DNA of 64,000 nt, taken from the NCBI GenBank assembly GCA_028709705.1, contig JAQVWL010000005.1:892-64891 (forward strand), in the 5' to 3' direction. The notes under the pieces are model-generated. The model did not search any database. It was not told where the DNA came from and saw only the letters and a program-made list of their open reading frames with translations. The translations under genes and the position numbers were made by a program. This DNA is from Clostridia bacterium (GTDB lineage: Bacteria; Bacillota; Clostridia; Christensenellales; UBA1242). Shown one piece after another: positions 14,077 to 34,648 of the stretch. The first letter of the stretch is position 1, and each line of letters opens with the position of its first letter.

Positions 14077-16738
14077 ATTTGTTATCATATTTTTTCGTCA
14101 AAGTAATTTTTATAAATTCACTTGCAAATAATGTTAGAATGCAACTCAAAAATATAACAAGCCACTGCAATAGACCAAGCGAAACTAACCCCAGATAAAT
14201 ATGAATAGGGGTTAACGCAATAATTGCCATAATTCCAAAACAGAACAATACTGCAAAAACCGCCCATTTGTTTTTGAAAATGTTGTTTTTAAAAACACTG
14301 CCCTTTGCTCGCATAGAAATAAAGTAAAAAAACTGAATTATGTTTAGTGCATAAAAAGCCATTGACATTGCCACTTTTTCTCCGCCAAAAACAAAATTGC
14401 CAAGCAAAAAACAAGTTAACATTATAATACCTTGAAAAAGTCCCATAATTATTATCGAATGACCCACACCATTGCTAAACAAATTTGCCTTTTTGCTTCT
14501 AGGTTTGGTTGCCATAATATTTTTTTCTGCTGGCTCCAAACCCAAGGCAATAGCAGGCAAAGTGTCTGATATCAAATTTACAAACAGAATTTGAACAGGG
14601 TTCAAAAATATTATTGCCGGAAATAGAATTGTTCCCAAAAAAATTGCTGTTATTTCTGCCAAATTTGCACTAAACAAAAATTGCACTGTTTTTTGTATGT
14701 TGGAATAAATTTTTCTGCCTTCTTCAATTGCTATTATTATTGTTGCAAAATTGTCATCAGTAACAATTAAGTCTGCAACATCTTTGGTTACATCTGTTCC
14801 CGTTATACCCATTCCCACACCTATGTTTGCACGCTTGATACTTGGGGCATCGTTTACGCCATCGCCTGTCATTGCCACAATTTTGCCTTGTTTTTTATAA
14901 CCTTCAACAATTCTAACTTTGTTTTCGGGGCTTACTCTTGCAAAAACAGACACTTTGAAAAGAATTTTGTTAAATTGCTCATCATTCATTTTGTCAATTT
15001 CGGCACCTGTTATCACTTCGTTGTCATTTATTGCCAAACCTATTTGTTTTGCTATTGCTATTGCTGTGTTTTTGTGGTCGCCCGTTATCATAATCGGCCT
15101 TATTCCCGCCGTCTTGCATTTTTCTATTGCTTTTTTTACTTCTTTTCGTGGTGGGTCAATCATACCCGCAAGCCCCACAAATGTTAGATTATTTTCAAAA
15201 TTGCTATCATTGTTTCTAGGCAAAATTTCTTTGTAAGCAAAACCCAAAACTCTTAACGCATTGCTCCCCATTTTGTTGTTTGCGGTTAAAATAACGTCTT
15301 TAAAATAAGAGTTTAATTCCAATTTTTTTCCATTTATCAAAATTGAAGTGCATTGTTTTAAAAGTTCATCAACTGCTCCTTTTGTGTAAACAACACAAGA
15401 TTGATGAAAATAATGCACTGTTGTCATCAATTTTCTGTTCGAGTCAAATGGAATTTCTGCTATTCTTTCAAATTCTTTGTCAACAAATTCTTTTTCTAAT
15501 CCAAAGGATTTTGTATACTCGCAAAGCGCAATTTCGGTTGGGTCGCCAATAAATTTTTCTTCACTTTTGCTAGTGTTGTTGCATAGAAGCATTGCATTAC
15601 TCAAAAACAAAAACTCATTATTTGATATATTCGGTTTTGCTTTTAAATCAAGATTGTTATTATAGAATAATGCTTGTATTTTCATTTTGTTTTCAGTCAA
15701 AGTGCCTGTTTTGTCAGAGCATATAATTTCACAACTGCCAAGAGTTTCTACAGCATGAAGTCTTTTTACTATTGCCTTTCTTTTTGCCAATCGAGCAATA
15801 CCCAAACTCATTATAATAGTTATAACAGCAGGCAAACTTTCTGGTATTGCTGCAACCGCTATTGCAATGGCTGTTAAAAATGCTTCCAAGGGTTCACTGG
15901 GGTTCGCCCAAAATTCTATCGCAAAAGTGACAACACATATTGCCAAAATCAAAAATGTTATTATTTTGCCTATTTGATTTATGCCTTTTTGTAACGGAGT
16001 TTCGTCTTTTTTGCTCTCTTGAAGCATATTTGCAATTTTGCCAATTTCAGTGTTGTGTTTTGTTGCCACAACAACAGCAAGTCCCCGCCCGTTAGAAATA
16101 ACACAACCACTATAAACCATATTTTTTCTTTCAGCAAGAATAGTGTTTTGCCCCAAAACTGCCTTGCTATCTTTTGTTGTTGGAACGCTTTCTCCGGTCA
16201 AAGAACTTTCATCACATTTCAGCATTGAACTTTCAATAAGTCTGCAATCGGCAGGGATTATATCACCCGCTTCAAGAACTATGATATCACCTACAACACA
16301 ATTTTTGCTGGGCATTTTTTTTAATTCACCATTTCTTACAACCTTTGTTTCAGGTTCGGTCATATTTTTTAATGCTTGCAAAGAATTTTCGGCTTTTCTT
16401 TCTTGCACAAAGCCAATAATTGCATTGAGAAGAACAATGCCAAAAATAATAAAACCATCAAGAAGTTCGCTTGATGTTTGCCTAAAAATGGCAATACCTA
16501 TGGAAAGTGCCGATGCAATAAGCAAAATAATTATCATAATGTCAGTAAACTGTAAAAGAAAAACCAAAATCAAGTTTTTCTTTTTTGGTTCTTCTAATTT
16601 GTTTTCGCCGTCTGTTTTTAATTTCGCTTTTGCTGTTATTTCTGACAATCCCCGCTTGTCAACACCCAAAAGTTTTAAACATTCACTTGTTGTTATTGTG
16701 TAAAAATCTTTTTTTATCATAATTTTATTTATATTCAA
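14075..16738 (-). CDS. P-type ATPase, Ca2+-transporting (P2 type)
   Basis: CSDKTGTLTENKM, MITGDH, TGDGVNDAPS and PAD...TGES. About 10 TM segments. Confidence 0.85.
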   Translation of the reverse strand: MNINKIMIKKDFYTITTSECLKLLGVDKRGLSEITAKAKLKTDGENKLEEPKKKNLILVFLLQFTDIMIIILLIASALSIGIAIFRQTSSELLDGFIIFGIVLLNAIIGFVQERKAENSLQALKNMTEPETKVVRNGELKKMPSKNCVVGDIIVLEAGDIIPADCRLIESSMLKCDESSLTGESVPTTKDSKAVLGQNTILAERKNMVYSGCVISNGRGLAVVVATKHNTEIGKIANMLQESKKDETPLQKGINQIGKIITFLILAICVVTFAIEFWANPSEPLEAFLTAIAIAVAAIPESLPAVITIIMSLGIARLAKRKAIVKRLHAVETLGSCEIICSDKTGTLTENKMKIQALFYNNNLDLKAKPNISNNEFLFLSNAMLLCNNTSKSEEKFIGDPTEIALCEYTKSFGLEKEFVDKEFERIAEIPFDSNRKLMTTVHYFHQSCVVYTKGAVDELLKQCTSILINGKKLELNSYFKDVILTANNKMGSNALRVLGFAYKEILPRNNDSNFENNLTFVGLAGMIDPPRKEVKKAIEKCKTAGIRPIMITGDHKNTAIAIAKQIGLAINDNEVITGAEIDKMNDEQFNKILFKVSVFARVSPENKVRIVEGYKKQGKIVAMTGDGVNDAPSIKRANIGVGMGITGTDVTKDVADLIVTDDNFATIIIAIEEGRKIYSNIQKTVQFLFSANLAEITAIFLGTILFPAIIFLNPVQILFVNLISDTLPAIALGLEPAEKNIMATKPRSKKANLFSNGVGHSIIIMGLFQGIIMLTCFLLGNFVFGGEKVAMSMAFYALNIIQFFYFISMRAKGSVFKNNIFKNKWAVFAVLFCFGIMAIIALTPIHIYLGLVSLGLLQWLVIFLSCILTLFASEFIKITLTKKYDNK

Positions 16739-28688: not shown

Positions 28689-29410
28689 TTATATATGGCA
28701 AAAATGCAATCAAAGAAGCAATTTTAAGCAATTTGACAATCAACAAATTATATGTTGAAAATGGTGTCAAAGATGAAACGGGTCAAGCAATTTTAAACTT
28801 GGCTAAACAAAATAAAATAAAAATATCTTTTGAACAAAAAAATATTTTGTTTCAAAAATGCCAAACGCCAAAACACCAAGGCTTTGTTGCCGAAACAACT
28901 GAATTTGAATATTGCAAAACAAGTGATATTTTAAACAAAGCAACAAAAAAAGAAGAATTGCCTTTTGTTTTGATATTGGACGGAATTATGGATCCGCACA
29001 ATTTGGGAGCAATTATTAGAACAGCAGAAGCAAGCGGAGTTCACGGAATAATTTTGCAAAAGGATAGGGCGTGTGCAGTAAATGAAACTGTTTTTAAAAC
29101 AAGTGCCGGTGCTTTATCTAATATGCTTATTGCAAGAGTTGTAAATCTTTCAAAAGAAATTGAATATCTAAAAAAACAAGGTTTATGGGTATTCGGCTTG
29201 GAACTTGGCGGGGCTGGAATTTTTAAATCTAATTTGACAGGCCCAATCGCTATTGTAATTGGTAGCGAAGGAAACGGTTTAAAAGATTTGGTAAGAAAAA
29301 ATTGCGACAATATCATCACTTTGCCAATGAAAGGGCAAATAAATTCGCTTAACGCAAGTGTTGCAACGGGTATTGCGGTTTATGAAATTTTAAGACAAAG
29401 GGGAAATTAA
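28685..29410 (+). CDS. rlmB: SpoU/TrmH-family 23S rRNA 2'-O-methyltransferase
   Basis: DPHNLGAIIRTAEASG, IGSEGNGL and SLNASVA motifs. Synteny with mrnC and sigH. Confidence 0.8.
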   Translation: MIIYGKNAIKEAILSNLTINKLYVENGVKDETGQAILNLAKQNKIKISFEQKNILFQKCQTPKHQGFVAETTEFEYCKTSDILNKATKKEELPFVLILDGIMDPHNLGAIIRTAEASGVHGIILQKDRACAVNETVFKTSAGALSNMLIARVVNLSKEIEYLKKQGLWVFGLELGGAGIFKSNLTGPIAIVIGSEGNGLKDLVRKNCDNIITLPMKGQINSLNASVATGIAVYEILRQRGN

Positions 29411-30024
29411 TGCAACAGCAGTTAACTGATGAAGAATTGATGAAAGATTTTAAAAACGGCAATGAAGCAGTTGTTGATTATATTTTGTCAAAATACAAAA
29501 CTTTGGTTAACAGTGTTGCCCGCAGATATTATTTGATTGGTGCAGAGCAAGAAGATTTGGCGCAAGAGGGTATGATTGGGCTTTATAAGGCGTGTATGGG
29601 TTATAAACCAACCGCAAACAATTCTTTTAAAACCTTTGCTTATCTTTGCGTGCAAAGGCAAATTCAAAGTGCCATTAAGATTGCCAACAGGCAAAAAAAC
29701 TTGATTTTGAATAATGCTTTGTCTTTAAATTCTCAAAGTGGACTTGTTTTGCGAAACGGCGAAGATTTGGGCGACACAGAAACTTTTTTATATTTGCCAT
29801 CAAGCGAACCAACACCAGAAAACAAACTTATTGAAAAAGAAGAATACAAAGAAACAATTCAAAAAATAAAAAATGTGCTTTCAAGTTATGAGTTTGAAGT
29901 TTTGAAACAATATTTGAAAGGTTATAAATGCGAACAAATTGCACAAACACTAAAAAAAGATTTTAAAAGCGTAGACAATGCTTTAAGCCGAATAAAAACA
30001 AAACTTGATTTTATAAAAAAATGA
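29410..30024 (+). CDS. sigH: RNA polymerase sigma factor SigH-like
   Basis: YLIGAEQEDLAQEGMIGLYKA...FKTFAYLCVQRQIQSAIKIANRQK closely parallels Bacillus SigH region 2. Confidence 0.8.
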   Translation: MQQQLTDEELMKDFKNGNEAVVDYILSKYKTLVNSVARRYYLIGAEQEDLAQEGMIGLYKACMGYKPTANNSFKTFAYLCVQRQIQSAIKIANRQKNLILNNALSLNSQSGLVLRNGEDLGDTETFLYLPSSEPTPENKLIEKEEYKETIQKIKNVLSSYEFEVLKQYLKGYKCEQIAQTLKKDFKSVDNALSRIKTKLDFIKK

Positions 30025-30026
30025 TA

Positions 30027-30368
30027 TCACATACAATTAACAACAGACAACATAATATCATTGACCGACTTTTTTTCAAGTGAATAAATTATCAGTTTGC
30101 CAACTCTTTTAAAGGCAACTATTTTTTCACTTCGCAAAAGTTGCAGTTGGTGGCTAACTGTTGTTTGATTTATGCCAAGCAGTTTGGAAATGTCATTCAC
30201 GCACATATTGCACATACAAAGGCAAGTCAAAATTCTAAGCCGTGTATAATCTGAAAAATTTTGAAAAAAGCACGCCATTTTAAGCATAGAGTTTTTTTCT
30301 GGCATATATTCCAAAATTTCATTTTTGTTTCTTTCGCTTAACACCAAAAAATTGTTTTTCATATTCAA
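30027..30368 (-). CDS. ArsR/SmtB-family metal(loid)-responsive repressor
   Basis: DYTRLRILTCLCMCNMCVNDISKLLGINQTTVSHQLQLLR is a winged HTH with a Cys cluster at the alpha3 sensing position. Confidence 0.8.
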   Translation of the reverse strand: MNMKNNFLVLSERNKNEILEYMPEKNSMLKMACFFQNFSDYTRLRILTCLCMCNMCVNDISKLLGINQTTVSHQLQLLRSEKIVAFKRVGKLIIYSLEKKSVNDIMLSVVNCM

Positions 30369-30513
30369 ACTCCTTGCAAATTAACATTTATTTATTTTTT
30401 CTCATATATAAAAAAAGTACATAAAAAAAATATTTTTGTCAATGTTTGCATAACACAAGTTTTAAGAAAATTTGCAAAAAAAAGTCAAAAATTGAACTTT
30501 AAGGAGGATATTT

Positions 30514-30717
30514 ATGAATTTTTCACAAGATATTTTATTGGTTTTACTGCTTTCTATTTTTGCACAAAGCACAGGAACGGAACTTTCAACCAACTCTAAC
30601 TACTTACTACTTTTACTTTTAGCGCTTTCTAACCAAAATTGTGGGTGTCCTAACCAATGTTGCACAAATCCCTGCTGTAATCCTTGCGGAAACCCATGTT
30701 GCAACCGCTTTTTTTAA
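30514..30717 (+). CDS. 67-aa peptide with a hydrophobic N-terminal half and a Cys-rich tail (10 Cys in the last 27 aa)
   Basis: Strong RBS AAGGAGG 7 nt before the ATG. The tail is CGCPNQCCTNPCCNPCGNPCCNRFF. Divergent from the ArsR gene and followed by a terminator. Confidence 0.6.
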   Translation: MNFSQDILLVLLLSIFAQSTGTELSTNSNYLLLLLLALSNQNCGCPNQCCTNPCCNPCGNPCCNRFF

Positions 30718-30732
30718 AATATAACACCAATA

Positions 30733-30764
30733 AACAAAACTAGTTTAAAAAAACTAGTTTTGTT
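30733..30764. terminator. bidirectional intrinsic terminator
   Basis: AACAAAACTAGTTT-AAAAA-AACTAGTTTTGTT. Confidence 0.7.
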
Positions 30765-30767
30765 CCT

Positions 30768-31301
30768 TTATTGTTTTGCCATATCTTTTTTCATCAATTT
30801 TTTGTTTTCAATATATTTATATAATTTGATAAAATCAACATAATATGGGTTTTCTTTGTCAAATTTTAAATCAGGTATTGATAGTGTGTTGTCAATAAGG
30901 TCGGGAATATTAGGTTGAAAACCCCAAAGTGGACCTTCTCTTAAAATCATTTCTCCTTTTTCGCTGACAAAAAATTCTGACCACGCAAGAATACTTTTTT
31001 GTGTTGATTCTGGAAGTTTTTCCCAACTGCTCAACTTGTCAATAATACGATTTATTTGTTCTTCTTCATACTTTTCTGATGGTCCATAAACTTTTCCTAA
31101 CAAATATGACAACAAATATTGTGTGTCAAGTTTTTTCTTTTTTTTGATTGCAAAAATAAGAATGCTTGTATTGTCGCAAAACAATTTTTCACAATAATCT
31201 TGTTTTTCTGTGTCTGTTTTTAAGTTTTTGGGGAAATTTATTTCCTTAACAGAATTTGTTAAATTAAAATCAATTTTGGGTGCATAAGGTTTTATTACCA
31301 T
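30768..31301 (-). CDS. hypothetical protein
   Basis: 177-aa ORF with no motif recognised. Downstream partner of 31379..32788. Confidence 0.4.
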   Translation of the reverse strand: MVIKPYAPKIDFNLTNSVKEINFPKNLKTDTEKQDYCEKLFCDNTSILIFAIKKKKKLDTQYLLSYLLGKVYGPSEKYEEEQINRIIDKLSSWEKLPESTQKSILAWSEFFVSEKGEMILREGPLWGFQPNIPDLIDNTLSIPDLKFDKENPYYVDFIKLYKYIENKKLMKKDMAKQ

Positions 31302-31378
31302 ATCTTTTCTCCTTATTTTTTTTATAATTATATCACAATTATTTTTTTTTGTAAAGAGTCAATTTTTTAAAAAAAATT

Positions 31379-32788
31379 TTATTGGGTTTTATCCATTTCA
31401 TTTTCAAACAATTTTTTCAGTTCTTCAAATCTTTTTGGCGCTCCTTGATTTTTTTCATCAATCCTTTCAACAACTAGTGTACTATTTGCTTCTGGCGTTT
31501 CTTCCTTTAATTCTATTATTTCTGTTTTTACGACTGTTGTATTTGTATTTGTTTCCGCCTTCAATACTTCTTCTTTTCTAATATCTCCCAAAAGTTCTCT
31601 CATTTCAACAAATTGACTTTCTATTGATTTGTAAAAATCTTTTTGATTAACTTTTTCTTCTTGTTTTTGCTTTGCTTGCGGTTTAACTTTTTTTTGTGGA
31701 GTTTTCTCTTGGGGTTTTTCGCCTTCCGCCTTTTCTGGAACTGGCTTTTTTTCTCTTAAACCTTCAAAAAATTTTTCGCCAAACAAAGAACTAGTGTTGC
31801 CTTTGGCTTTGGTATCTTCTTTTTTGCTATCGCCTCCACCCTTACTGCCTCCGCCACCACCGCCTTTACTTCCACCACCGCTTCCACCAGGACTTTCGGT
31901 TTTTGCTTTTACGCTAGGTTTTGAAGGGCTTTTTGGTTTTAAATTATTTGTACCCAAAATGCCTTCTTTTTCTTGTTTTAGGTGTTTTTCAATAGTTTTC
32001 AAGTCTTCCAAAAGAGTTGTGCGGGCTTCTTTGATTTTTTTATTTTCTTCTATATCAAATTTACTCTGCAAAATTTCTTCATCAACGATTTTATCCAAAA
32101 TTTGCCTAAAAACCAAAAATTTGTTTTGTGCATTTTTGTCAAGTTGATTTGTTCTAACCAAATTGACAAATTTTTTTACAACTTCATTCCCGTTTTTGGC
32201 AGTTTTTAAAAACTTGAAAATGGCACTTAAATATTTGTTTTCAATATCTTCATTTTCTTTGCAAAAAATAGACCAAATGTCTTGCTTCTTTTTCAATTCA
32301 GTAAACAATTCTATCGGAGGACCAACATAATTTTTTAGGTCAATCTTTCCATTCAATTCTTCTTTGGAAACCAAGTGAAAGGCTTTTTTTACATTAAACA
32401 AGAAATTGTCAGTATTATTTTCTGTTAATTTTGCAAGTTGGGTTGTTATTGAACTTTTATAAATTTTTGCAACTACAAAATCTTCTATCAATTTTAAGGT
32501 TGCCATTTTTTTGTTTTCTGGCAAATCTTCTATTGTTACAACAAAATTAAGTTTGACTTTGTTGACGACAGCAGTCGCTTTGTATTGACTGTCATCTTTA
32601 AACTCTATCAACTTTTGCAAATTTATTAGTTCTTTTATTATTATATCTAAAATAATGTATTCGTTTTTTTCATTAAAATTTCCAACAAGTGAATTTTCAC
32701 ATGCTTCATATTTTTTTGTATCTTTCAAATATTTTGTTGCAAATTCATTCAAAATTTCTTGGTCTGATTTTGTTTCAGCGTTTTCCAT
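31379..32788 (-). CDS. hypothetical protein with a Gly-run and a K/E/P-rich disordered region
   Basis: A 280-aa helical N-domain, then SPGGSGGGSKGGGGGGSKGGGDSKK and a KPQEK-rich segment. Confidence 0.45.
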   Translation of the reverse strand: MENAETKSDQEILNEFATKYLKDTKKYEACENSLVGNFNEKNEYIILDIIIKELINLQKLIEFKDDSQYKATAVVNKVKLNFVVTIEDLPENKKMATLKLIEDFVVAKIYKSSITTQLAKLTENNTDNFLFNVKKAFHLVSKEELNGKIDLKNYVGPPIELFTELKKKQDIWSIFCKENEDIENKYLSAIFKFLKTAKNGNEVVKKFVNLVRTNQLDKNAQNKFLVFRQILDKIVDEEILQSKFDIEENKKIKEARTTLLEDLKTIEKHLKQEKEGILGTNNLKPKSPSKPSVKAKTESPGGSGGGSKGGGGGGSKGGGDSKKEDTKAKGNTSSLFGEKFFEGLREKKPVPEKAEGEKPQEKTPQKKVKPQAKQKQEEKVNQKDFYKSIESQFVEMRELLGDIRKEEVLKAETNTNTTVVKTEIIELKEETPEANSTLVVERIDEKNQGAPKRFEELKKLFENEMDKTQ

Positions 32789-32913
32789 ATAAAACCTCCA
32801 AGCATTTGCTTGGTTCAGTATAACACAAACAAGTTTATTTGTAAATATTTATGCAAAAGTATTTATTTTTTTGGCATTATGTGATATTATGTTAAAAAAC
32901 AAAAAGGTGGTTT

Positions 32914-33690
32914 ATGAAAAAGGAAAGCAATTCAAGAACTTATGCAATTTGGTTGACATTGTTTTTGGCAGTTGTTGCTGTTGTGTTATTTTTTGTTATT
33001 CCAAGAACAGATTATTTCCTTGCATTTAATAATATAAATTCAATAAATGAAAACTACAATTCAACTGACAGTAGCAACAACTCAATAGAAAATTATATAA
33101 TTTATGTTTGTAATTTGAATGGTTTGACAACCACAAATACACAAAGAATAACCGCAGATAATCAAATAAGAGCATCATTGTTTATGTCTAACACTTTTGT
33201 CAAAAAATCGCTTGCTTTTGTTTCTCACAATGCTGAATATAATAGAAATGTTAATCTTCAAAACAACGCAAAAAATGTGCTTTTGAACCAAATACAAAGC
33301 ATACAAAATTATTGCAAAACAACTTTGGCGGTATACTTAAAACCTGAAACAGAAAAAAATCCGACCACCAACAACCAAATTGCAAATATATTTATAAACC
33401 AACTTGAAAATCTTACTTTGGCATTTGCAAATTTTTATAACGCAACAGCACAAATAATTGAAAAAAGTGCCACAAGTTGTATGGAAGTTAACGCCTTGAC
33501 AATTTCCGTTAACTCAAACTTTAATGATTGCATTCAAAGACTTTTAGTTCAAGAAAACATTTCTACGACTACAACACAAAATTTATTAAACACAATAACT
33601 TCAATGTCTGATTCCAATTATTATAAATATTATTTCGACAATTCAGTCACTGTTAGCAATGTAGTTTCTACGTTTAATGCAATTGCATAA
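32914..33690 (+). CDS. hypothetical N-terminally anchored, Asn-rich protein
   Basis: Single TM segment (AIWLTLFLAVVAVVLFFVI), then an N/T/S-rich helical ectodomain. Confidence 0.45.
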   Translation: MKKESNSRTYAIWLTLFLAVVAVVLFFVIPRTDYFLAFNNINSINENYNSTDSSNNSIENYIIYVCNLNGLTTTNTQRITADNQIRASLFMSNTFVKKSLAFVSHNAEYNRNVNLQNNAKNVLLNQIQSIQNYCKTTLAVYLKPETEKNPTTNNQIANIFINQLENLTLAFANFYNATAQIIEKSATSCMEVNALTISVNSNFNDCIQRLLVQENISTTTTQNLLNTITSMSDSNYYKYYFDNSVTVSNVVSTFNAIA

Positions 33691-33706
33691 CCACAAAAGG
33701 AAAAAA

Positions 33707-34648
33707 ATGAAAAAAAGTATATTTTTGTTAATGTTAATAGTTCTGTGTATTCCATTTTTTTATGCTTGCGATAACGACAGCACAATTTGGGTAAAAACTA
33801 ATGCAACTGTAAGTGCTTTTTTGAATGGTGAAACTACGAACTATGACGAATTTATTGAAGGAAATATAACTTTTTCTAGTGAACTTGAAAACAAAAGAGA
33901 TGAAATAGATAGCAAGTTTTATGACTTAATATATTATGAAAATATTTTGGGCACTTGCTTTGTAAACGCCCAAAAGCATATAGGCAGTTTTGCAATAACA
34001 CCCATACAAAATCAAAACAAAGCAACAAGTTTGTGTTTGAAAATAGAAAACTCTTTAAGCAATTTGATTAAAGAAATTGAAAATTTTAAAACTATCAAGC
34101 AAAAATTTTTGGTTGACACAAATAGCCGAAACTATAATGATGTTATAGCATTATCCAAATTGAAAAGTTTTAAAGTTTCTTTTTATAATTTGATAAAAAA
34201 AGCAAATACTTTTAACATAGATTTTACAACTGCATATGCGACCTTGTATGGCGGAATTGTTGACGCAGATATTGCAAATTCAAACACCATTTTTAATTCT
34301 GTTAGTGTTGTTTTTACAGACTTGATAGACACATATATCAAATACGGTTTTGCAGAGTTTGGTGGCGATTGCGCGCAAGAAAATAATTTTTTTGGTAGTA
34401 TTTTGGAACTTAAAGCAAAACTTGAAAGCAGTCAATGCTTGGGTGCAAATTATGCAAATTGGCTAACTATGTATTCAAGTTTTGAAGGCGAAAAAAATAT
34501 ATTTTTAACCGCACTTGCAAATATTGACTTAAACGCAAATAACTCAAACCCCAATGAATTGCAACAAGTTTATTTAAACAAAATAAACAGTTTTGTAAAT
34601 GAAAATGCTACTTTGTTTATCAACCATACCAAACAATTGTTTAATTAA
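33707..34648 (+). CDS. hypothetical lipoprotein
   Basis: Start moved to the ATG at 33707. MKKSIFLLMLIVLCIPFFYAC is a signal peptide plus lipobox Cys. Confidence 0.55.
   Translation: MKKSIFLLMLIVLCIPFFYACDNDSTIWVKTNATVSAFLNGETTNYDEFIEGNITFSSELENKRDEIDSKFYDLIYYENILGTCFVNAQKHIGSFAITPIQNQNKATSLCLKIENSLSNLIKEIENFKTIKQKFLVDTNSRNYNDVIALSKLKSFKVSFYNLIKKANTFNIDFTTAYATLYGGIVDADIANSNTIFNSVSVVFTDLIDTYIKYGFAEFGGDCAQENNFFGSILELKAKLESSQCLGANYANWLTMYSSFEGEKNIFLTALANIDLNANNSNPNELQQVYLNKINSFVNENATLFINHTKQLFN

Follow-up and report, generated by a model that had tools for sequence, protein, structure and literature searches.

What does a small cysteine-rich peptide do opposite an ArsR-type regulator in a bacterium with a very small genome? 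The question is raised by a 64,000-nucleotide stretch of contig JAQVWL010000005.1 (Clostridia bacterium, assembly GCA_028709705.1), hereafter the window, in which an open reading frame (ORF) of 67 codons is transcribed divergently from a gene of the ArsR/SmtB family, the two together occupying positions 30,027 to 30,717. An earlier note, made from the DNA alone, had proposed a metal sensor paired with an unconventional metallothionein or metal-buffering peptide. Our analysis shows that the pair is a genuine and undescribed cassette of one family of minimal-genome, spore-forming gut Clostridia, which probably has relatives in a sister family. For its function we tentatively favour, at a little under an even chance, a different reading: that the product is an ArsR-gated spore-envelope peptide, expressed in the mother cell and built of a hydrophobic N-terminal domain (N-domain) and a cysteine tail.

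The earlier note had remarked on a near-perfect ribosome-binding site of the peptide gene, and the gene is indeed genuine. The ORF is conserved and single-copy, AAGGAGG stands 6 nt before its ATG, and GGAGG-type sites precede the ATG in all relatives. The sequence, which the note did not recognise, proved equally unfamiliar to Pfam and NCBIfam, neither of which contains a family that matches it at E<=1. A HMMER search of 1.8 billion representative proteins returned 41 clusters (at 50% identity), all of which share the same N-terminal 40 residues. Within the GTDB family of the window the peptide is present as a single copy in 117 of 151 genomes and in 47 of 58 genera. In a class-wide sample of Clostridia, all six members of this family (6/6) had it, whereas the 293 genomes drawn from 75 other families gave no match. 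Its relatives are encoded in metagenome-assembled genomes that go under such names as Christensenella sp. UBA5489, Clostridia bacterium HGM11372 and Ca. Caccopulliclostridium, recovered from human, chicken, sheep and other guts.

The peptide consists of two parts that are conserved to very different degrees. The N-domain (residues 1-39, consensus MNFSQDILLVLLLSIFA.AT.T.L.TNTNFLLLLLLAL) has a mean pairwise identity of 70% over 54 sequences; it is 32% Leu and contains neither basic residues (0% K+R) nor cysteine (0%), and M1, L11, L24, N27, L31 and L35 are invariant in the family alignment. AlphaFold2, supplied with the family alignment, places helices at residues 3-19 and 28-42 with predicted local distance difference test (pLDDT) scores of 71-79 and leaves the tail disordered, the whole being a hairpin modelled at low confidence (pLDDT 62). 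No positively charged start of the kind seen in signal peptides is present in the peptide. The tail varies from 17 to 39 residues in length across the family, with a mean pairwise identity of 37%, and in 60 relatives is composed largely of Cys (19%), Asn (18%), Ser (16%) and Gly (15%). These relatives carry 2-10 tail cysteines at positions that are not fixed, many genera having only two or three. In the window the tail, CGCPNQCCTNPCCNPCGNPCCNRFF, has nine cysteines in about 29 residues, one fewer than the ten counted in the earlier note. Its last residue is Phe in 60% of the family, often as R-x-F, and the full set of 3402 peptide residues includes one Lys and one His. Because identity stands at 70% in the hairpin and at 37% in the tail, selection acts mainly on the hydrophobic hairpin, with the tail kept Cys-rich and open and otherwise free to vary.

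The conservation of the gene pair, which the earlier note had proposed as a check, is firm. An ArsR gene is the divergent neighbour of the peptide in 27/27 loci with enough upstream sequence and in 44 of 48 species-level loci, and the arrangement is of the smtB-smtA type. In the window the two genes are separated by 151 bp, counted from the ATG at 30362; this is probably the start of the regulator rather than the TTG at 30368, since AAGGAG lies 7 nt upstream and fits the ATG better. The peptide has no conserved neighbour other than ArsR. A hisS-mrnC-rlmB-sigH block lies on opposite sides of the pair in the window and in locus L008, and in L002 the pair is intact amid unrelated genes. In four species the peptide faces uvrC; three of these genomes carry an ArsR-like gene elsewhere.

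Of the signals in the control region, the one on the peptide strand is the most conserved. Thirty loci share the consensus tTAACA-N16-CATATAtA at fixed spacing, with an almost invariant AACA. As these loci had been picked by the presence of CATATA, the pattern was re-tested on 53 distinct loci without that bias: AC-N17-CATA[TCA][AT] occurs within 160 nt 5' of the ATG on the coding strand in 40 of them (75%), while the opposite strand has it in 0% and shuffled sequences in 2% (maximum 9%), and several loci scored as misses carry the motif just past 160 nt. The motif falls into two position classes, either about 105-135 nt upstream, as in the window, or about 40 nt upstream, and three of the four loci without ArsR as a neighbour also have it. 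In the window the AC lies at 30384-30385, 17 nt from the -10 element CATATATA, and the transcript is predicted to start near 30417 with a leader of about 97 nt. The sigma-A -10 pattern TAnnnT is absent from every hexamer frame of CATATATA.

In Clostridioides difficile, sigma-E and sigma-K promoters have a common -10 and differ in the -35 (ATA vs AC), and the -10 of sigK P2 is CATATAAT (PMC3789822). The lineage studied here shows comparable elements. Upstream of spoIVA is ATATT-N15-CATACCTT, which is sigma-E-like; yunB is preceded by ...CATATATAT, with the same -10 as the peptide; and in 24 of 29 family genomes sigK follows a CATA(T/C)A element, beside an ACAAGC box that we take to resemble the SpoIIID site of Bacillus subtilis. 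Both sigK and sigE are encoded in the genome of the window. Because the motif follows the C. difficile sigma-K pattern, because the same -10 precedes sigK and yunB, and because no sigma-A -10 frame is available, we regard the element as a candidate mother-cell promoter, most like those of sigma-K.

The genome itself, that of an uncultured organism, is compatible with a sporulation role. It comprises 924 kb at 32% G+C, with a completeness rated at 99.5% and roughly 850 genes by a rough ORF count, and probably belongs to family UBA1242 of the Christensenellales, with genomes of 0.7-1.4 Mb. The genera UBA5489 and HGM11372 have been assigned to this family, which is described as having genomes <1 Mb, as probably partner-dependent and as unexpectedly possessing sporulation genes (PMC12306168). 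The gene set of the window's genome agrees with that description and places it among the smallest genomes carrying one. It encodes Spo0A, SpoIVA (371 bits), YunB (147 bits, cut-off 112) and six sigma factors, including sigH, a sigE/sigG pair, sigF, which follows an anti-sigma gene, and pro-sigma-K. YabG was not found in 29 family genomes, matches to DpaA are weak (101 bits vs a cut-off of 320), and two regular-expression searches, which are weak evidence, returned no SpoVM-like ORF. SpoIVA is present in 145 of 151 family genomes, and a phylogenetic profile of the peptide against it is uninformative because SpoIVA is nearly universal. The C-terminal domain of Spo0A occurs three times in the window's genome (C12:1514-1822, C18:8471-8779 and C15:9652-9831), two of the matches being nearly equal (141.6 and 141.5 bits) and located on short contigs. 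Duplication, heterogeneity among strains or redundancy in the assembly could account for this.

On the reading that we favour, the peptide would be a late sporulation product of the mother cell, expressed from the sigma-K-like promoter (-35 AC, 17 nt, -10 CATATATA). Its uncharged, Leu-rich helical hairpin would mediate membrane association or self-assembly, and the Cys/Asn/Ser/Gly tail, which evolves fast, would lie exposed and form cross-links by way of its cysteines. The peptide would then be a minimal component of the coat or of the outer forespore membrane, in a lineage without many of the classical coat genes. The divergent ArsR/SmtB protein would act as a local repressor of the peptide gene and of itself outside this stage of sporulation, and a thiol, metal or redox input to the repressor is conceivable in those members that carry the cysteine cluster described below. 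The nearest parallels are small mother-cell proteins and Cys-rich coat or exosporium proteins, for which we compared SpoVM and CmpA (B. subtilis), CotY/CotZ, CdeC/CdeM (C. difficile) and the YjcZ type. To our knowledge none of these is paired with an ArsR-type regulator. Like them, the peptide is small and lineage-specific, with hydrophobic helices, a Cys-rich low-complexity part and a mother-cell-type promoter; unlike them, it has no sequence similarity to any member of the group. In C. difficile, coat genes depend on sigma-K (PMC3789822).

Several observations weigh against this assignment. Neither the known coat families nor those of the SpoVM, CmpA or YjcZ type match the peptide in Pfam or NCBIfam. 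The choice of sigma factor is one of motif resemblance: the sigK promoters of the family have the same -10 without an AC at the corresponding distance, and a scan of the genome with a position weight matrix of the promoter gave few matches, with the promoter of hrcA, a sigma-A/CIRCE gene, also scoring. A sigma-K gene has no obvious need for a dedicated repressor. The hydrophobic runs of the two helices, 11 and 9 residues, make them too short for ordinary transmembrane spans. Lastly, 34 of the 151 family genomes have no peptide match and nearly all of these have SpoIVA, so the peptide is not indispensable for sporulation, with the proviso that our search model may miss divergent copies in these 34 genomes. 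A bolder form of the spore-envelope reading, which we consider unlikely, holds that the hairpin is a hydrophobin-like, Lys-free and trypsin-proof element that self-assembles on the outer membrane of the forespore of a minimal-genome symbiont, under the control of a thiol- or metal-responsive ArsR; it would be a new kind of endospore surface or morphogenetic protein. Such a peptide might stand in for missing classical anchors and coat proteins (the SpoVM-like ORF and YabG that were not found), and ArsR gating would couple coat assembly to a chemical cue from the gut or from a partner organism.

The regulator is of the ArsR/SmtB type, as the earlier note had it, matching PF01022 at 41.4 bits (cut-off 22) and NF033788 at 73.2 bits (cut-off 55). 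Its closest solved relatives are SmtB (E 1e-12), CzrA and CadC, and tblastn found no second ArsR-family gene in the window's genome. The note had also placed a cysteine cluster, TCLCMCNMC, at the canonical alpha3 sensing position. The cluster is present, but only its last cysteine aligns with C61 of SmtB (HMMER alignment), a residue that we take, on a manual register, to correspond to C32 of ArsR. This cysteine is followed by V-N-D where SmtB has C-V-G-D, so CVxD is kept; the other cluster cysteines sit 3, 5 and 7 residues upstream. The V-C-D-L-C motif that alpha3 thiolate sensors such as ArsR R773 and CadC use, in CadC together with N-terminal cysteines, is absent from the regulator. Its C-terminal helix LIIYSLEKKSVNDIMLSVVNCM has no His and so lacks the Asp/His/His/Glu ligands by which SmtB, CzrA and NmtR bind metal in alpha5. 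Across 52 orthologues the segment holds from zero to four cysteines, and 37 of the 52 keep at least two. There is none in three loci (L015, L017 and L026; ILLSIRQMQ), all of which keep the peptide partner, one in SALAVSEMC and others, two in various forms, three in the commonest form, SCLAMCDMC (C-x3-C-x2-C), and four in the genus of the window. A non-canonical thiolate or redox site is possible in most orthologues, but it does not define the ArsR-peptide pair. The orthologues also share a conserved N-terminal Y-(M/V)-P motif.

How do these features bear on a metal-related function? The proposal is that a thiophilic metal or metalloid, detected by ArsR through its cluster, lifts repression of the peptide, whose tail would buffer metal at the membrane as an anchored metallothionein. 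The layout invites this comparison: in smtB-smtA of Synechococcus PCC 7942, as here, an ArsR/SmtB repressor is divergent from the gene of a small Cys-rich protein, with about 150 bp of control DNA between them. Among solved proteins the regulator matches SmtB best, which is like CzrA and CadC a metal sensor, and its alpha3N half-site CVxD is kept. The window's versions are the most Cys-rich of their kind, with nine cysteines in the tail and four in the regulator segment, and most orthologues retain at least two of the latter, often as C-x3-C-x2-C. In addition, the closest ArsR orthologue outside the family (sister family f4, locus L081, 49% identity) is found immediately downstream of a P1B-type ATPase that has a CPC motif and an HMA domain (L081:1483-3297), a context that suggests a metal-related ancestry of the regulator. 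Against these points, the peptide has no similarity to SmtA or BmtA and matches no metallothionein family; the number and positions of its tail cysteines are unconserved and His is nearly absent, while the part that is conserved is a Cys-free, hydrophobic two-helix domain. The regulator lacks the canonical CVC and alpha5 ligands, its cluster is variable, and the three pairs with no cysteine in the segment, like the four species without an adjacent ArsR gene, still keep the peptide. The correlation between tail and regulator cysteines is weak (rho 0.25, p 0.07, without phylogenetic correction). Moreover, the conserved upstream signal is a sporulation-type, sigma-K-like promoter, with no recognisable metal-sensor operator, whereas smt has a sigma-A promoter with a 12-2-12 operator. 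Given the missing family match, the variable cysteines, the conserved N-domain and the sporulation-type promoter, metal buffering as the function of the family is unsupported, and we hold an anchored metallothionein to be improbable; metal buffering by the tail would be no more than a side function, in Cys-rich genera like that of the window.

A regulatory or toxic membrane peptide seems to us a comparably long shot. Here the peptide would be a small membrane protein with either the regulator or some other protein as its target; it would sequester the ArsR repressor in the manner of SdpI and SdpR, or would be a repressed membrane-perturbing toxin or regulator. In sdpR-sdpI of B. subtilis, too, an ArsR-family autorepressor without a proven metal site has a membrane-associated partner and a link to sporulation, and the SdpR family (NF033789) is the second-best NCBIfam model for our regulator. 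Its score of 53.5 bits is far under the cut-off of 100, however, and the regulator does not fall within that autorepressor subfamily. The tight pairing with the only ArsR-family gene of the genome, the hydrophobic hairpin as the conserved part of the peptide and the Y-(M/V)-P motif of the regulator would all suit such a partnership. But SdpI, large and polytopic, shares an operon with SdpR, whereas this peptide has about 60 residues and is encoded divergently; the helices fall short of the usual membrane span, a gene that is near-universal, single-copy and equipped with a strong ribosome-binding site is unlike that of a toxin, and the Cys-rich tail and the sporulation-type promoter are left unexplained. 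The peptide could also be the precursor of a ribosomally synthesized and post-translationally modified peptide (RiPP), such as a bacteriocin, a thiazole or thioether peptide or a pheromone, with the N-domain as leader and the tail as core. A conserved leader-like N-terminal part followed by a hypervariable Cys/Gly/Ser/Asn-rich C-terminal part is the typical precursor pattern, and the composition of the tail resembles the cores of thiazole/oxazole-modified microcins. This we think very unlikely, as the 99.5%-complete genome has no YcaO, LanC-like protein or C39 peptidase exporter, and its only six radical-SAM proteins are, by eye and without a family scan, of housekeeping types (MiaB, MtaB, RimO, HemW, HemZ-like and NrdG). 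The peptide gene has no conserved neighbour besides ArsR and belongs, as a single copy, to the core of a whole family, whereas RiPP clusters are usually patchy. The N-terminal part greatly exceeds known leaders in hydrophobicity and has no double-Gly site.

Bacteria of the UBA1242 type are widespread in guts; with genomes of about 1 Mb and an apparent dependence on partners, they have unexpectedly kept sporulation (PMC12306168). A near-universal, strongly signalled orphan, together with the only ArsR-type regulator among some 850 genes, is unlikely to be dispensable. Should the peptide prove to be a spore-envelope component, it would help to define a minimal coat and would provide a lineage marker for these spores. 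If ArsR gates a sigma-K promoter, this would be a new link between a family of stress and metal sensors and the mother-cell programme. With almost no Lys and a single Arg, the peptide would be missed by ordinary tryptic proteomics, a blind spot that may explain why such proteins went unnoticed. The features of the locus are collected in Table 1.

Table 1. Features at the ArsR-peptide locus, in window positions.
Feature	Position	Strand	Details
sigH	29410-30024		
ArsR/SmtB-family winged-helix regulator, 111 aa from ATG	30027-30362	-	TTG at 30368 is an alternative start
Candidate mother-cell (sigma-K-like) promoter of the peptide gene	30381-30410	+	TTAACA 30381-30386, 16 nt, CATATATA 30403-30410
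Candidate sigma-A-type promoter of the ArsR gene	30414-30442	-	TTGACA 30442-30437, 17 nt, TACTTT 30419-30414
Shine-Dalgarno sequence AAGGAGG	30501-30507	+	6 nt 5' of the peptide ATG
Peptide ORF, 67 codons	30514-30717	+	MNFSQDILLVLLLSIFAQSTGTELSTNSNYLLLLLLALSNQNCGCPNQCCTNPCCNPCGNPCCNRFF
Conserved N-domain, residues 1-39	30514-30630	+	Two short Leu-rich helices with a Thr/Asn-rich loop between them; no Lys, Arg or Cys
Hypervariable Cys/Asn/Ser/Gly-rich tail, residues 40-67, and stop codon	30631-30717	+	9 Cys; C-terminus RFF
Bidirectional hairpin terminator, 14-15-pair stem	30733-30764	both	Between the peptide gene and a convergent 177-aa gene

The opposite strand of the control region holds a plausible sigma-A promoter of the regulator, TTGACA-17-TACTTT, and the pattern TTGAC(A/T)-N17/18-TAC(A/T)(G/T)T recurs in L008, L011 and L018 (in the forms TACAGT and TACATT). 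The candidate core promoters of the peptide and ArsR genes are interleaved within about 60 bp, and RNA polymerase on one should therefore exclude polymerase from the other. No conserved dyad or inverted repeat that could serve as an ArsR operator was found in common among the loci. Two palindromes considered for this role, CATATATA...GTACATA and ATGCACA...TGTCGCAT, are better explained by the promoter boxes. In a search for an RNA element in the leader, Rfam models gave only sub-threshold noise, mostly on the terminator hairpin, and a riboswitch-like element in the window locus is unsupported, the fold of 119 nt having a z of 0.23. Some clades have small hairpins over the Shine-Dalgarno sequence; one shows a ATTTGCGC...GCGCAAAT repeat with G:U-type changes, and in one clade the leaders (L050, L054, L055, L061, L062 and L064) contain a CCACCAAAAGA..TTTTGGAGG hairpin that would pair with the Shine-Dalgarno sequence, a hint that this clade may control the peptide at translation. 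None of these elements is present in the window.

Two genomes of a sister family (f2; L082 and L083) carry peptides of 53 and 64 residues adjoining an ArsR orthologue. These follow the same plan of a helix, an acidic/Thr loop, a second helix and a tail, here with two cysteines, and their profiles align co-linearly with those of the window's family at E = 0.002-0.006. AC-N17-CATA precedes both peptides and SpoIVA is encoded in both genomes. On these alignments homology to the peptide of the window is probable, though not proven. Two further proteins are encoded beside the pair (L082:2121-3241 and L083:55-1237), a membrane protein of 210-266 aa and a TPR-like protein, the L082 copy of which has an extremely Cys-rich tail (CCNICSGLLCADCCCECMGGDLIACC). 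Upstream of sigK (L101-L129, 29 genomes; C22 ~173150-173250 in the window's genome), the window's family shares gtACAAGCAAAATTCGACA followed by CATA(T/C)A. The peptide promoters of L082 and L083 also contain TTCGACAAA, there in the form of its complement TTTGTCGAA, and one clade of the window's family has it as TTTGTCG. The ATPase of f4 has its HMA domain (GMCCEHC) at the C-terminus, an unusual placement.

The genome of the window encodes three P-type ATPases, none of which adjoins the ArsR gene; one lies in the window itself (15779-16363, minus strand, an 892-aa ORF), and a 793-aa protein on contig C5 has the size of a heavy-metal P1B pump. Beyond the terminator, positions 30768-34648 hold orphan genes for proteins of 177 and 469 aa on the minus strand and for an Asn-rich protein of 258 aa on the plus strand. 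The 469-aa protein has a Gly-rich run and a K/P/E-rich tail. We place this block outside the cassette because only 3 of 48 species loci have a homologue of the 469-aa protein in the neighbourhood of the peptide.

Elsewhere in the genome, a looser regular expression for the peptide promoter listed yunB and several orphans, which is suggestive but does not amount to a regulon. The second-best genome match to the motif, TTTAACA-N16-CATATAAAA (contig C2, minus strand, ~8715), lies 18 nt upstream of a gene for a 114-aa encapsulin-type ferritin-like protein (EncB family, 72 bits, cut-off 90), which may be another late sporulation gene.

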